Assembly: GCA_049325475.1 (NCBI GenBank)
Contig: JBMOLN010000007.1
Location: 95,489-159,488 of the forward strand
Direction: 5' to 3'
DNA length: 64,000 nucleotides
Source: Patescibacteria group bacterium
Lineage (GTDB): Bacteria; Patescibacteriota; Patescibacteriia; 2-12-FULL-60-25
Made by a program: the position numbers and the translations under genes. The notes below the pieces were generated by a model, which had not been told where the DNA came from, made no database searches, and saw only the letters and a program-made list of their open reading frames with translations. This document shows positions 37,836 to 56,601 of the stretch, piece after piece. The first letter of the stretch is position 1. Every line of letters begins with the position of its first letter.

Positions 37836-37910
37836 GGTGGCCATGGTGAAGCGGTATCACAGCAGATTGTGGCTCTGCTATCACGGGTTCAACTCCCGTT
37901 GGCCACCCCA
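37836..37910 (+). tRNA. tRNA-His (GTG), with encoded G-1 and CCA
   Basis: Hand-folded cloverleaf. Acceptor GTGGCCA/TGGCCAC, D stem GTGA/TCAC, anticodon stem GCAGA/TCTGC with loop TTGTGGC, T arm ACGGG-TTCAACT-CCCGT. The extra 5' G pairs with discriminator C. 3' CCA is encoded. Confidence 0.9.
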
Positions 37911-50531: not shown

Positions 50532-50807
50532 ATGACCGATCTCAACGTTCCCCAAATGATTGCACTCGCAATCAGTGAAAGCACACTGAAAACCCTCGCG
50601 GCCATAGAACATGGCCCGGAGGAAACCCTCTCGGCTCTGACCGAGCAAATCAACCTATTGACGACCGCTCGTCAGGCGCTCGAGAACATGCTCAACCCCG
50701 ACCCGGCCAAGTGTGCCTCATGCAAAGAAATCATTTGCCCCAATCACCCCTCGCATGCCAAGCCGCCGGCCGAAAGCCCAGCCGAAGACCACGACGGTCT
50801 CGGTTGA
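50532..50807 (+). CDS. small helical protein with KC-x2-C-x4-CP-x-HP motif (paralog B)
   Basis: Own TTGACA-17-TACATT promoter, GAAAGG SD, KCASCKEIICPNHP motif, terminator at 50840-50861. Confidence 0.55.
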   Translation: MTDLNVPQMIALAISESTLKTLAAIEHGPEETLSALTEQINLLTTARQALENMLNPDPAKCASCKEIICPNHPSHAKPPAESPAEDHDGLG

Positions 50808-50839
50808 TAAATTTTGGCAGATACGATCTGCCAACTCAA

Positions 50840-50861
50840 GTCCCGCCCCTGGGACTTTTTT
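50840..50861 (+). terminator. intrinsic terminator
   Basis: GTCCC-gcccct-GGGAC followed by T6. Same stem as the 50225 terminator. Confidence 0.7.
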
Positions 50862-51036
50862 GATCCTGATTTACAGCACGTTTCTCCGTAGTCCTGTTAA
50901 CCCGTATTCCGGAGTCAACTCTGGACAACGATTTACGGTTGCACTGGAATACGTTGTATATTCGTAGTTCATGACGTAGGACGTAGGACGATTGGGACGA
51001 ACCCTCGCACCGTACGGTGCAGGGCGTGCGACAATA

Positions 51037-51065
51037 TTGACCTTCCCCTTATTTTTTGATATAAA
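51037..51065 (+). promoter_or_regulatory. sigma70-like promoter TTGACC-17-TATAAA with TGn extension
   Basis: Hexamers at 51037-51042 and 51060-51065, TG at 51057-51058. Upstream of cassette 3. Confidence 0.45.
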
Positions 51066-51223
51066 TAGCCCGGAACCTTCAATCCAACAGGCGGAAACAA
51101 TCGCCTGCTTCCCATCTCTACTTCACATACCGTCCCAAATCGACGTATCCACGTCCGACTCATCGACGATATTAATGTGAGATAAAGATGAGAACCTCCA
51201 ATCAAATTGAAAGGAGAAAAACC

Positions 51224-51477
51224 ATGGGGTAAAAATCATACAACACCGCAAACTGCGCTCCCGCAAACCCGGCGTTCGTCTTGCTTATCGTGAAATCTGC
51301 ATTGACGGATGCCTGCATCGCATGGATTTGGTAATGTATCAAATTGTTCTAGGCGAATTCCGCTGTACGGAAGTATATCGCTTTCCCGATGAAAAACCTT
51401 GTAGTTGTAAAAAATCATCATCCTCCCCCATTAAACAGATCATAGACAAGATAGCATCTGTCTTCTCTGCCCCTTAG
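51224..51477 (+). pseudogene. frameshifted (G-tract) small Cys-rich ORF in third cassette
   Basis: AAGGAG-N7-ATGGGGTAA gives a 2-codon ORF. The adjacent frame is open for 82 codons (VKIIQHRKLRSRKPG...CIDGC...CSCKK...) up to TAG at 51475. One extra G in the GGGG run would fuse them. Confidence 0.3.
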
Positions 51478-51612
51478 CGGGCATTTTTTTAACCAAGATT
51501 TCCGGAATTTAACTTACGATTAGCAGGATTATTAATTAAACCGATAAGCAAATGAGCCACTAAGCGATTAAGCTTATTGGCTTTGCGGCTTTGTCGCTTA
51601 GTAGCTTCGTAA

Positions 51613-51647
51613 TAGAATCTAGAGTCTAGAATCTAGAGTCTCGAGTC
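51613..51647. repeat. heptanucleotide array (TAGAATC TAGAGTC TAGAATC TAGAGTC TCGAGTC)
   Basis: Ends 7 nt before the rsmE stop codon. Confidence 0.85.
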
Positions 51648-51653
51648 TGCCAT

Positions 51654-52349
51654 TCAGTTGCAAGCCATATAACTCGCAACAATCGCCGCCGTCTCGGCTC
51701 TTAAGGTTAAACTTCCCAAATTTTGCAATAAAAAACCCGCCCTTTTTGCTTGCTCAACTTCCATGTCACTCCATCCACCTTCCGGCCCGATCCAAACTCC
51801 CGCTCTTTGCGGATTCTTCTGCGTCGGCGCTTCAGACTCAATGTTTAAATCATAAAAATAATTCACTTCATGATCTCTCGCCCGTTCCATTGCCGATGCT
51901 AAAGGTATTGGATCGTTTACAAGCGGCACATGCCCCCTGCCCGATTGCTCGGCCGCTTCTTTGGCAATTAATCTTACCCTGTCCATTTTTAAACTTTGCT
52001 TGACTGTTCTTTCAGTGATGATCGGCACAATCTCCCAAACCCCGACTTCAGTCGCCTTCTGCACCACTAACTCAAAATTCTCTCTTTTCAAAACCGCGCA
52101 GAATAAAAAAACTTTTTTAGATGTTTCGACGCTGATCTCTTTTGCATCTTCTAAAATAATCGTAACCGACTTTTTATCGATACTATCAATCCTCCCCACT
52201 GCTTCACGTCCATATCCGTCACATAAAATTAACGCTTGTCCCGTCTGCATGCGTAAAACTTTTGTTACTTGATGCGCAAAATCCTTGTCATCAATAACAA
52301 GTTCTTTTTTATTTAAATCAAATTTGCCGATAAATCGATGTAACTTCAT
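51654..52349 (-). CDS. rsmE: 16S rRNA (uracil1498-N3)-methyltransferase
   Basis: MKLHRFIG start, PUA-like N-domain, IGPEGGWSDMEVEQA SPOUT motif. Confidence 0.85.
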   Translation of the reverse strand: MKLHRFIGKFDLNKKELVIDDKDFAHQVTKVLRMQTGQALILCDGYGREAVGRIDSIDKKSVTIILEDAKEISVETSKKVFLFCAVLKRENFELVVQKATEVGVWEIVPIITERTVKQSLKMDRVRLIAKEAAEQSGRGHVPLVNDPIPLASAMERARDHEVNYFYDLNIESEAPTQKNPQRAGVWIGPEGGWSDMEVEQAKRAGFLLQNLGSLTLRAETAAIVASYMACN

Positions 52350-52459
52350 AAACTTATCGTACAACGTACATCGTACATTGTACAAAGTCCATAGCAATCA
52401 CTGACTGCCGTCTAACGACAATCGTCAATCAAATAATAATCCTGCTGATCATTTTAAAA

Positions 52460-53090
52460 TCAAGACACGTCGTTCGCGAACGACCGTGTCAAGGTAATCC
52501 TGGTAAAAAAAAGAAGAGCCGTGTTGCGCCCTAAGAATTGATAATTTTTGTGGCGTCACAGCTCTAGGCCAAGACGCGGATCAACTCTCGTGGGCAATTA
52601 ATCGGCAAAGCCGACATTGAGAAGGAGCGAATCGCTCCACGATTTTGATACTAGCGGTATCCCTGGCCAATAAGACCACTGGTTCATCCCATTCCTGGCA
52701 AGAACTTCGAGACTTGCAATGAAGTCTCATAAATGAAGTGTGCCTGGTGTGCGTGTCAGGTCGCTATGCATGAAATGTCCTGCACAATGAGCTGACACGC
52801 CGTGTTTTTAGTTTTGTTTTTTGATTTCAATGTGTCGCGTTAAACGCGGCGGGAATGAGATAATCCAATTCATGGATGTCCATAAGAACAGGTTATGGAG
52901 ACCCATTATTTAAAGTGGTTTGAAATGTACTATGAGGTAATCAATAGAGTTGCCTGCAAACCGACCATGAGCATGGCTTGCATGTGCCATATACGACACG
53001 AAACGCGCTTGCAAATCAAGCGCTTCCACACAAAGAGCGTTATAAAATCTAAAGTACGATTGTGTATAATTATTATATCGTACTTTTTGA
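52460..53090. ncRNA. candidate structured non-coding RNA(s), class unknown
   Basis: About 630 nt with no credible ORF and at least 11 stable hairpins (for example 52464-52490, 52751-52800, 52709-52728). Promoter-like and terminator-like signals exist for both strands. Confidence 0.3.
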
Positions 53091-53100
53091 CTTTTATCAA
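53072..53100 (-). promoter_or_regulatory. sigma70-like promoter TTGATA-17-TATAAT (minus strand) at edge of ORF-free region
   Basis: Minus-strand hexamers at 53100-53095 and 53077-53072. Overlaps a plus-strand terminator-like hairpin, so the interpretation is ambiguous. Confidence 0.35.
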
Positions 53101-53176
53101 TGGTGAATAACTTATTATTGTTATTTATGCCAAAAAAACCGGTTTAAAATCATTATCCACATCTTGTGGAAAAGTA

Positions 53177-54301
53177 TTAAAAATAACAAAAAATCACCTT
53201 CTCATTTTCAATTGAAATTTGAATTTGTTTAATATCCCAAAAACAAATGTCAGTCCATGAACAAATATTATTAATACTTGCCGCATCAAACAAAGCAATT
53301 TGTTTCCCCGGGCATGTCAAAGTTCTGACACTTTCTCTGCCGATCAATGAAATATCCGAATCAACAACCAAACCCTTTACTCCGCTCATCAACTCATTAA
53401 CATCAGTGCTGGTTGTAAATCTGTCGATTCTATATATCCTTTTAACCACATCGCCGTCCTCCAGCTCAAACTCCTTCTCTTCCACCATATCTGCTCCGGC
53501 GGCAATCCCAATTAAATCATCTGCTTGGCGTGTCGAAGGCACATAATCCACAGCTAGCGAACTTGAAACCGCTTCCCAGCTGATTACGCCCTTATTGGCC
53601 AAATCCAAATCATATCCGCTTTGCATTAAAAACGTCTCAACAATTTCCGTTGCATTACCATCCAAAGACACTGCCGATTTCTCCGCATTTGCAAATGAAA
53701 TATACTGCAAATCAGCAACGTTCATATCCGTACGCCAAACATGATCCTCCAGCTCGCCTTGCACCGATCTTGGCAGAGCAAGTTCATCGCCGGCATCCCC
53801 AAATACCTCTTGCAGATTCATATTTAATTTTGTATTTACAGTCTTTTTCCAAACAGGCCCCAATTCTTTATACGCAGAAGATCTTTGCCGGATAAACTCA
53901 TTCATATTTACACCTTCAATAATCCACGGCCCTTTGCCTTCTGTGATAATACTTAATAAAGAAAACCTCACAGCATATGCTCGCAGTTCGCCGTTTATAT
54001 CTTTCGCCAAGCCTGCGTAAGTCGGAAAATACTTGTTATTTTTCGCAACCTGCCGCCAAACATCAGGCGCATCCAAATCCAAAGAGCTCTGCGCCGGCAA
54101 AACAGCGGAAACCGCATTATTTTGCGCCACAGGAAAACTCGCCAAATGCCAAATCAATACATATACGGATAACACCGCAATCGCAAAACTCCCCGCCGCA
54201 ATAGCGAGGAGCTTTGGCAAAGCACTCCGTTTATTAGCCGTTCCGTAAGATAGGATGGGCGAACCCCGGAATGCCGCATCACGTATTAACGAATCTCTCA
54301 C
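53177..54301 (-). CDS. membrane-anchored hypothetical protein
   Basis: 374 aa with one N-terminal TM (LLAIAAGSFAIAVLSVYVLIW). GTG start overlaps the pnp stop (GTGA). Confidence 0.65.
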   Translation of the reverse strand: MRDSLIRDAAFRGSPILSYGTANKRSALPKLLAIAAGSFAIAVLSVYVLIWHLASFPVAQNNAVSAVLPAQSSLDLDAPDVWRQVAKNNKYFPTYAGLAKDINGELRAYAVRFSLLSIITEGKGPWIIEGVNMNEFIRQRSSAYKELGPVWKKTVNTKLNMNLQEVFGDAGDELALPRSVQGELEDHVWRTDMNVADLQYISFANAEKSAVSLDGNATEIVETFLMQSGYDLDLANKGVISWEAVSSSLAVDYVPSTRQADDLIGIAAGADMVEEKEFELEDGDVVKRIYRIDRFTTSTDVNELMSGVKGLVVDSDISLIGRESVRTLTCPGKQIALFDAASINNICSWTDICFWDIKQIQISIENEKVIFCYF

Positions 54302-56601
54302 AGTTGAATTGCAAATGGATCATTGGATTGAGGCTTATGCGGCGGCCTTGGCGGTCTGTCATGACCCCTGTCATTACCTCCGGAGCCGTGATGATGTGGT
54401 CTTCCGCCGCCGTTTCCGTCTCGTCTTGGCGGTCTGGGTCCGCGCGGGCCTCTTTCATCTCCCCCGCCTCTATAATCCGGATTTGCCCTCTTAATGGACA
54501 AATTGATTCTGCCCATTGAATCTATCTCATAAACCTTAACCGTCACCTCATCTCCAATATTAACAACATCCGTCACTTTATCAACCCTTTGCGGCGCCAG
54601 TTCGCTGATATGCACCATTCCTTCCTTGCCCGGCAAAATCTCCACAAAAGCTCCGAAATCCATAATCCTGGTTACCTTGCCCGTAAACACCTCGCCAACC
54701 TCAACTTCACGGGTTAAATTTAAAATCATTTCCTTGGCTTTTTCCATGCCTTCAGCTGAAACCGAAGTAATATAAACCGAACCATCATCTTCAATATCGA
54801 TTTCCACCCCCGTAGCATCAATAATTTCATTAATCATCTTACCGCCCGGACCGATCACTTCTCTGATCTTATCAGGATGGATATGTATGGTTTCGATTCT
54901 GGGTGCATATTTGGACAATTCCGGTCTGGGTTCCGCCAAATTGGCTTGCACTACATCCAAAATCTGCAGTCTGGCCTTTAACGCTTTCTCAAACGCTTCT
55001 TTAACAACCTCCAGCGGCAAACCTCGAGTCTTGGTATCCATCTGAATGGCCGTAATTCCCTCACGTGTACCGGCTACTTTAAAATCCATGCCCCCTTCGC
55101 CGTCTTCCAAATCTTGAATATCGGTAATAACTTTCCATTTATTTTCATCTTCAATGGATGCGACGCCAATCGCAATACCTGCAACCGGTGCTTTAATCGG
55201 CACGCCTGCGTCCATCAATGCCAAAGATGATGCCGTAGCCGAACCCATGGACGAAGATCCGTTAGATCCCAAAACCTCGGAAACAACTCTGATGGTATAA
55301 GGAAAATCCTCTTTATTGGGAATGACCGGTATTAAAGCTCTTTCCGCCAATCCTCCATGGCCGATCTCTCTGCGGCCCGGTCCGCGATTGCTCTTGGTCT
55401 CTGATACCGCGTACGATGGAAAATTATAATGGTGGAAAAAGCGGCGCGTTGTTTTAAATTCCATTGTATCGATATGCTGTTCCATGCCCGGCCCGCCCAA
55501 CGTCACCAAAGACAAAACCTGCGTCTGCCCGCGCATAAACAAACCCGAACCGTGCGTACGGGGCAGCAAGCCCGTATCCGCGTACAACGCACGGACTTCA
55601 TCAATGCCTCTGCCATCCGCTCTTTTACCTTGTTCCAATATCATGTCTGTCACGGCTCCATCCACGAATCCCTCTAAAACTTCCATGGCAACCCTCCTGC
55701 GGTCTTTGCCGATTTCTTTTTCAGTCAAATATTTTTCCAAGCTATCCTTTAATTTATTTACAGCATTCTTTCGATCTTTCTTGGATCTTAAGGGCTCGGC
55801 GAACAATTCGTTTTTATGCTCATTGAGATATTCATTGGCCATTGCCTGCAATTCCTCCATATCCTTTTGTGCAGCAATCTCTTCCTCGCTCTTTGCGGTA
55901 AATATATCAACCTTGGTTTTTCCATGTTCTGCCGCGACCTTATTGATTAATTCTATTACCGGCGCAAAACTGTTCTGAGCAAACTCAATCGCTTTAAAAG
56001 CCGCGTCCTCGCATACAATATTCGTCCCGGCCTCAAGCATAACTGTTTTATTGTTGGCTCCGGCCACAATAACTTCCATTCCGCCCTGTTCCACTTCTTC
56101 ATATGTGGCATTCAAAATATACTGTCCGTCTTTTTGACCGATTCGCGCCGCTGCAATCGGACCATTCCATGGGATGTCGGAAATCATCAAAGCGCAAGAT
56201 GAACCGATTAAACCGATTACATCCGGATCGTTCTCGCCATCATGACTTAAGACCGTTGAAACAACAGCAATTTCGTTCCTCATTCTGTCATCAAACAAAG
56301 GTCTGATGGCTCTGTCGATCAAGCGGCCCGATAAAATTGCCTCATCAGTAGGCCTGCCTTCACGCTTAATATACCTCGAGCCTTTAATTTTGCCCGCGGC
56401 ATAAAACTTTTCTTCATAATCAACTTGCAAAGGAAAAAAGTCCAAACCTTCGCGGATGCCGCCCATGGTTGCCGTGCAAAGCACAACAGTGTCGCCATAG
56501 CGCACAGTACACGATCCATTAGCTTGCTGGGCTAAAAGATCAATGCCAATAGTCAGGGTTCTTCCACCCCACTCAATAGAGTATTCTTTTTGATTTTGCA
56601 T
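54298..56601 (-). CDS. pnp: polyribonucleotide nucleotidyltransferase (PNPase) with Arg/Gly/Pro/His-rich C-terminal tail
   Basis: Two RNase PH domains, KH (IREVIGPGGKMINEI) and S1 (GEVFTGKVTRIMDFGAFVEI) domains. About 60 extra disordered residues at the C-terminus. Confidence 0.95.
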   Translation of the reverse strand: MQNQKEYSIEWGGRTLTIGIDLLAQQANGSCTVRYGDTVVLCTATMGGIREGLDFFPLQVDYEEKFYAAGKIKGSRYIKREGRPTDEAILSGRLIDRAIRPLFDDRMRNEIAVVSTVLSHDGENDPDVIGLIGSSCALMISDIPWNGPIAAARIGQKDGQYILNATYEEVEQGGMEVIVAGANNKTVMLEAGTNIVCEDAAFKAIEFAQNSFAPVIELINKVAAEHGKTKVDIFTAKSEEEIAAQKDMEELQAMANEYLNEHKNELFAEPLRSKKDRKNAVNKLKDSLEKYLTEKEIGKDRRRVAMEVLEGFVDGAVTDMILEQGKRADGRGIDEVRALYADTGLLPRTHGSGLFMRGQTQVLSLVTLGGPGMEQHIDTMEFKTTRRFFHHYNFPSYAVSETKSNRGPGRREIGHGGLAERALIPVIPNKEDFPYTIRVVSEVLGSNGSSSMGSATASSLALMDAGVPIKAPVAGIAIGVASIEDENKWKVITDIQDLEDGEGGMDFKVAGTREGITAIQMDTKTRGLPLEVVKEAFEKALKARLQILDVVQANLAEPRPELSKYAPRIETIHIHPDKIREVIGPGGKMINEIIDATGVEIDIEDDGSVYITSVSAEGMEKAKEMILNLTREVEVGEVFTGKVTRIMDFGAFVEILPGKEGMVHISELAPQRVDKVTDVVNIGDEVTVKVYEIDSMGRINLSIKRANPDYRGGGDERGPRGPRPPRRDGNGGGRPHHHGSGGNDRGHDRPPRPPHKPQSNDPFAIQL

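Follow-up and report, generated by a model that had tools for sequence, protein, structure and literature searches.

The window, the whole 64,000-nt stretch of DNA that was analysed, spans C7:95489-159488 in a genome of 1.41 Mb that is 99.8% complete. The PNPase of this genome shares 64-67% identity with proteins from MAGs that bear the label Candidatus Uhrbacteria or Patescibacteria, and the MAGs with these PNPases also have the RNA described below. Two minus-strand genes, rsmE and a gene for a 374-aa protein, flank a gap at 52398-53176 that had been singled out from the sequence alone as free of ORFs; this is borne out, none of its ORFs being longer than 71 aa. Another stretch, 50653-51654, is likewise without any ORF of at least 100 aa. 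The genes and principal features of the locus are as follows:

51654-52397, minus strand: rsmE, downstream neighbour of the RNA in the source genus
52427-52516, unstranded: copy of a ~85-bp dispersed palindromic repeat, abutting the terminator T-run and outside the RNA
52507-52565, minus strand: long terminal hairpin (52515-52565) followed by U8 (52514-52507)
52507-53065, minus strand: predicted RNA gene as a whole, ~559 nt
53072-53100, minus strand: sigma-70-type promoter, with TTGATA at 53100-53095, a 17-nt spacer and TATAAT at 53077-53072
53177-54301, minus strand: gene for the 374-aa protein, a putative membrane protein, upstream neighbour of the RNA
54298-56601, minus strand: pnp, its end overlapped by the 374-aa gene

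Across 52502-53077, congeners keep ~70% identity over 500-600 contiguous bases in the same gene order, and their match is more contiguous over the RNA region than over the flanking coding DNA. The sequence-only reading had named a minus-strand TTGATA-17-TATAAT promoter at 53100-53072 and a T8-tailed hairpin near 52505, and our scans recovered both. The promoter matches at 11 of 12 positions, and TTGA and TATAAT are invariant in an alignment of 16 congeners (invariant columns 675-680 and 700-703). The terminal hairpin has a conserved inner sequence, CGCCAC...UUAGGGCG; eight of its nine outer pairs show compensatory change in the family alignment described below, and 99.3% of cells are paired when the minimum-free-energy (MFE) structure from the window is tested on congeners. 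Sequence conservation stops at this hairpin and its U8 tail, which together are a probable intrinsic terminator. We infer the two ends of the RNA from these signals, the -10 box giving the 5' end (~53065) and the U-run the 3' end (~52507). The locus thus has its own promoter, an apparent intrinsic terminator and conserved, covarying structure on one strand, the generic marks of a stand-alone ncRNA gene.

From 5' to 3', all on the minus strand, the RNA is predicted to comprise the following parts:

52932-53065, minus strand: 5' domain of several hairpins (e.g. 53005-53023 and 52957-52980), variable across the family and with weaker covariation
52933-52938, minus strand: single-stranded ACCUCA, near-invariant, and invariant in the 16 congeners
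52915-52919 with 52675-52679, minus strand: helix PA, next to PC, 90.7% paired in the family alignment
52871-52907, minus strand: helix PB, GAUGGGU...CCAUC, with inner hairpin CCAUAA/UUAUGG
52852-52867, minus strand: 5' strand of the 15-bp long-range helix PC, whose partner is 52680-52695
52811-52828, minus strand: invariant A-rich single strand GAAAUCAAAAAACAAAAC, within a multi-helix junction
52751-52800, minus strand: long variable hairpin, found in only part of the genus, 91% paired with 13 compensatory pairs
52697-52744, minus strand: helix PD (GGCA/UGCC) around hairpin 52709-52728, 86-94% paired in congeners
52675-52695, minus strand: 3' strands of PC and PA (GGAAUGGGAUGAACCAGUGGU), from the comparative structure
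52566-52669, minus strand: 3' domain with helices PE/PF, in which 52646-52669 pairs with 52566-52583, from the comparative structure

PA and PC together make a 20-bp long-range closing helix around the junction that holds the invariant A-rich strand. In the family alignment PC is 96.2% paired, has 10 pairs with compensatory change and includes U-G pairing invariant in 28/28 sequences, while PB has compensatory change in 11 of its 13 pairs (94.7% of cells paired in congeners). The 3' domain carries variable inner hairpins at 52624-52638 and 52604-52616. The single-stranded ACCUCA, of which ACCUC is retained in most family sequences, resembles, together with its flanks, the 3' tail of 16S rRNA (GAUCACCUC).

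Folded as a single sequence, the minus strand of 52505-53065 reaches -185.3 kcal/mol, as against -141.0 +/- 6.4 kcal/mol in 100 shuffles (z = -6.9), and in the same test z is -3.6 for the plus strand. The gap had been described as densely packed with stable hairpins, and the minus-strand value agrees with that description. Nine of the eleven hairpins then listed fall within one RNA. Five of these (52516-52574, 52709-52728, 52751-52800, 52835-52851 and 52879-52899) belong to the comparative structure and show compensatory changes, and the other four (52604-52616, 52624-52638, 52957-52980 and 53005-53023) lie in variable parts of the RNA with weaker support. The remaining two do not belong to its structure: 52464-52490 is the core of the ~85-bp dispersed repeat, which has five copies in the genome, and 53053-53084 extends over the -10 box and the start of transcription, without conservation in relatives.

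We assessed covariation at two levels. Within the genus, RNAalifold on 16 congeners gave 73 consensus pairs, 36 of them with compensatory changes, in a structure that includes a long-range helix of GGAUUAUCUCGACCC with GGGUUGGGAUGAACC. For the family we used R1, a covariance model built on the 5' core, to find homologues and aligned 28 sequences from ~11 genera; their consensus structure comprises 74 pairs in 11 helices. Standard pairs fill 88.2% of its cells, compared with 31-44% when pairing partners are slid by 1-3 columns, compensatory change affects 54 of the 74 pairs (14-29 in the slid controls), and the covariation score is 0.409 (0.06-0.11 in the slid controls). None of 500 shuffles reaches the observed family-level values; because the aligned sequences come from related genomes, such shuffle tests overstate significance, and the slid controls are the fairer comparison. 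The long-range helix differs between the genus and other family members by paired swaps from U-A to A-U, from A-U to G-C and from G-C to C-G. When the MFE structure from the window was tested on congeners, PA, PB, PC, the 52751-52800 hairpin, PD, PE/PF and the terminal hairpin were kept, and the 5' domain was variable. A comparative covariation check in relatives had been proposed on first inspection of the sequence, and it finds the structure both conserved and covarying. Judged by these comparisons of related sequences, the RNA fold is under purifying selection.

The strand had first been left undecided between a ~560-nt minus-strand RNA and plus-strand RNAs. In the family alignment, G-U cells number 182 and A-C cells 95, and the alifold energy is -44.4 kcal/mol, compared with -25.1 kcal/mol on the opposite strand. 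This asymmetry and energy difference, the U-G pairs that are invariant in all 28 homologues and the orientation of promoter and terminator together place the RNA on the minus strand. The minus-strand option is therefore the one backed by conservation, covariation, promoter, terminator and G-U asymmetry, and the T-rich tails after 52800 and 53084 that had suggested plus-strand RNAs are the complement of the invariant A-rich single-stranded tract of the minus-strand RNA; we reject the plus-strand option. We consider it likely that minus-strand 52507-53065 is a stand-alone gene for a structured RNA of ~559 nt belonging to no described family.

Searches against known families are in line with the earlier impression of a structured RNA of unknown class. 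cmscan of the gap with all 4227 Rfam 15 families at E <= 10 returned nothing above ~22 bits and no plausible family, and cmscan of 15 homologous loci at E <= 0.1 returned no Rfam match; over the gathering-threshold and permissive Rfam scans of the window, the gap and these 15 loci, the sole match was a tRNA at 37837. No convincing motifs of RNase P, tmRNA or SRP RNA had been recognized in the gap by eye, and the Rfam scan agrees, with no matches to them there. A check for these RNAs elsewhere in the genome, also suggested earlier, located RNase P RNA and tmRNA, and SRP RNA was undetectable. RNase P RNA (RF00010), with no gap match at E <= 10, has its genome copy at C5:40902-41399 (133 bits), and ARAGORN places the sole tmRNA at C6:48060-48454. 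OLE, GOLLD, ROOL, HEARO, raiA, group I/II introns and rRNA fragments all failed to come near gathering score in the gap.

The possibility of a hidden SRP RNA was raised by the missing SRP RNA together with a string, GGGUCGAAGCAGC, seen in family homologues. The SRP RNA models RF00169 and RF01854 match neither the gap nor any other part of the genome, and a class-wide search with RF00169 was negative. The SRP54-type GTPase domain of Ffh and FtsY is absent from the genome and from 40 relatives in 17 families (control 14/14), and the genome has no DTAGR motif in any frame. The string itself is a strand of the covarying long-range helix, not a hairpin, and in the source genus it is replaced by GGGAUGAACCAGC with the partner strand compensating. 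We exclude SRP RNA on these three grounds, the absence of Ffh/FtsY, the negative class-wide RF00169 search and the position of the string in a long-range helix. The whole SRP pathway seems to be absent from the source genome and the 40 relatives (17 families of the class), and we found no literature on such an absence in these bacteria.

A degraded or unusual protein-coding gene is a reading that we find scarcely credible. Some relatives do have open frames of 110-160 aa across the region, but these occur in different frames and on either strand, tblastn matches switch frame, and the translations are of low complexity with no Pfam match. The longest ORFs in the 28 homologues range from 34 to 144 aa and differ in strand, position and size, with no positional conservation. 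Since every test of membership in a known family failed, we file the gene as a new RNA class within the existing broad category of orphan large structured RNAs; we hold this assignment with good confidence, subject to the limit that Rfam and the searchable literature, in which we found nothing on a large CPR or Uhrbacteria RNA, may miss a recent description.

Of 121 family genomes, 41 have an R1 match, always exactly one, and these genomes represent 14 of 33 genera. With R2, a family-trained model, we searched a sample of 401 genomes of the class: 13 of the 14 family genomes were matched, and the ~387 genomes of other families gave no credible match. The sole out-of-family R2 match (E = 0.002) falls on an A-rich repeat of the GC-rich genome G081 and contains no hallmark motif, so we regard it as a false positive. 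RNA length across the family runs from ~440 to 590 nt. As far as these sequence searches reach, the RNA is single-copy and specific to one family of Candidatus Uhrbacteria (Patescibacteria/CPR). Several TPA MAGs titled 'uncultured Gammaproteobacteria' (L153, L154, L157 and L032-L052) have the Uhrbacteria-type RNA motif, a PNPase with 50-58% identity to that of the source genome, or both; by these features they are probably mislabelled Patescibacteria.

The order pnp, membrane-protein gene, RNA is kept across the family. The 374-aa protein has a single N-terminal membrane helix and a Cys-containing C-terminus; searches for relatives in Pfam, NCBIfam and PDB found none and no known domain, and a search for related loci with this protein as query gave 0 confirmed matches. 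Its gene lies upstream of the RNA in many genera at just 20-30% identity between genera, and we observe that it is translationally coupled to pnp. On the other side, in 17 of 23 loci from outside the genus (loci L125-L145 are examples), the next genes on the strand of the RNA are a DksA/TraR zinc-finger gene (~130 aa) and lspA, and in the source genus rsmE takes the place of dksA/traR-lspA, with the repeat inserted between.

This neighbourhood bears on whether the RNA acts in cis, either as a very long attenuator or leader for dksA/traR-lspA or rsmE, or as a structured 3' UTR of the membrane-protein gene. Such a role would suit the shared orientation of the RNA and both neighbours, the terminator hairpin immediately 5' of the downstream gene, the family-wide synteny of the upstream gene and the frequency of the dksA-like gene 3' of the RNA. 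However, the RNA has its own invariant promoter, and its size (450-590 nt, with eleven conserved helices) is far above that of known leaders. The downstream gene varies while the RNA is conserved, which favours a trans-acting RNA over a leader, and we judge a cis-acting element to be unlikely.

Sites resembling DnaA boxes cluster at the promoter:

53061-53069, minus strand: DnaA-box-like TTATACACA, which fits TTATNCACA, overlapping the predicted transcription start
53153-53173, unstranded: inverted pair of DnaA-box-like 9-mers, TTATCCACA at 53153-53161 (perfect) and TGTGGAAAA at 53165-53173 (1 mismatch)

The inverted pair lies ~90-110 bp upstream of the RNA start, directly past the stop codon of the 374-aa gene, and TGTGGATAA is conserved in congeners. 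The interval 53061-53544 is the densest cluster in the genome of 9-mers like TTATCCACA (<=1 mismatch). Every one of 38 family loci has at least one DnaA-box-like site, and 95 of the ~115 boxes in these loci fall within a 250-nt zone around the RNA promoter. At least two boxes (TTATNCACA) thus sit at or near the promoter and are conserved in relatives, as is expected of a DnaA-regulated promoter. In E. coli, DnaA prefers paired sites (PMC11317965), and B. subtilis has stable DnaA sites between genes (PMC2533591). DnaA may control transcription of the RNA, a proposal that we consider evenly balanced between right and wrong; DnaA binding is read from matches to a 9-mer, and another regulator could instead bind the palindrome.

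The same sites could point to a DNA element, that is, an origin or a DnaA-titrating or -reactivating locus comparable to datA, DARS or the Bacillus DnaA-box clusters, to which the RNA would be incidental. The box density, the conservation of boxes in all 38 family loci and, in the closed genome G335, the location of the RNA gene only ~10 kb from the cumulative GC-skew minimum are all in keeping with this. Against it, compensatory changes and G-U asymmetry imply selection at the level of RNA, and the boxes are confined to ~250 bp at the promoter and do not extend over the 560-nt body. We rejected oriC at the RNA locus because neither the window nor the contig has a switch in GC skew or gene orientation, and because the G335 minimum, ~10 kb away, has four boxes of its own. 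A DNA element with an incidental RNA is accordingly very unlikely. Elsewhere in the source genome, a perfect inverted box pair (TGTGGATAA-N9-TTATCCACA) occupies a promoter-like intergenic position at C4:96833-96859, ~800 bp from a dnaX-like gene; the dnaA gene (C7:185648-187084) has just one 1-mismatch box upstream; and three tight boxes lie at C7:211021-211087, near a drop in GC skew from about -0.2 to about -0.04.

To our knowledge, the known classes of bacterial RNA that are both large (>400 nt) and intricately structured number only about a dozen. OLE RNA of Firmicutes is similar in being ~600 nt, with many conserved helices, single-copy on the chromosome and narrow in phylogeny, in having a gene that adjoins a membrane-protein gene, and in a function that long stayed obscure after discovery. 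It belongs to another phylum, however, and has no cmscan match here, and whereas an OapA-like partner is a feature of OLE, the protein encoded beside the Uhrbacteria RNA has a single N-terminal membrane helix and lacks known domains. GOLLD, ROOL and raiA are likewise large, intricately folded bacterial RNAs to which no biochemical function has been assigned, but none has an Rfam match to the Uhrbacteria RNA; GOLLD and ROOL are often associated with prophages or tRNAs and are patchy in distribution, whereas the Uhrbacteria RNA has one copy per genome, keeps its synteny and is near-universal within a single family. RNase P RNA and tmRNA, also structured, are universal RNAs of 350-400 nt, but both are encoded elsewhere in this genome. 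As for the predicted boxes, several close sites like TTATCCACA, some in inverted pairs, at an intergenic promoter recall datA/DARS of E. coli, the DnaA-box clusters of B. subtilis and DnaA-regulated promoters; here, by contrast, they surround the promoter of a gene for a large structured RNA, an arrangement apparently undescribed.

6S RNA shares with the Uhrbacteria RNA a stand-alone gene, its own sigma-70 promoter and one copy per genome. One rival reading is a known housekeeping RNA that has diverged too far for Rfam models to recognize, or a functional equivalent of one, such as a 6S-like RNA that binds RNA polymerase. 6S RNA is undetectable in the genome (RF00013 has no match in the gap or elsewhere), the present RNA is single-copy with a strong promoter of its own, and a DksA/TraR-type RNA polymerase factor is encoded next to it in most genera. 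Yet at ~560 nt it is three times as large as 6S RNA (~185 nt), and its fold is a multi-domain junction instead of a rod with a central bubble. Moreover, cmscan is empty even at E <= 10, and the RNA is confined to one family, when housekeeping RNAs would be expected to be traceable across the class. We find such a relationship improbable.

Our preferred reading is an RNA that would work in trans, either by catalysis or as a scaffold for proteins, with the invariant single-stranded ACCUCA and A-rich tract as its likeliest contact sites. DnaA bound to the boxes, one over the start site and the pair at about -100, would gate transcription, and such gating would tie the RNA level to replication status. 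The large bacterial RNAs that have so far been solved are nearly all ribozymes, ribonucleoprotein cores or unusual self-assemblies. A tentative extension, which we think unlikely as a whole, is that the RNA is the core of an Uhrbacteria-specific ribonucleoprotein or ribozyme whose level is set by DnaA and whose anti-Shine-Dalgarno-like ACCUCA and A-rich strand may act on mRNAs, ribosomes or RNA-processing enzymes; we have much less confidence in any specific molecular target than in the RNA gene itself. If true, a DnaA-controlled ribonucleoprotein or ribozyme would link translation or RNA turnover to the state of replication, in bacteria lacking much standard machinery, including the whole SRP pathway. 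A new single-copy class, near-universal in a CPR family, would offer a handle on poorly understood, ultra-small, uncultivated bacteria, and its apparent wiring to DnaA boxes adds to the interest. Structural studies (SHAPE, cryo-EM) and the mining of metatranscriptomes also gain a well-defined target in this RNA.

The ~85-bp dispersed repeat that adjoins the RNA gene contains the palindrome GACACGTCGTTCGCGAACGACCGTGTC, and its five genomic copies are 91-98% identical. The other four are at C7:3374-3461, C1:1718-1807, C6:58543-58624 and C3:18098-18184. Each copy directly adjoins the T-run of a terminator hairpin, as if the repeat targeted or carried terminator tails, and its palindromic core is present again in congeners.
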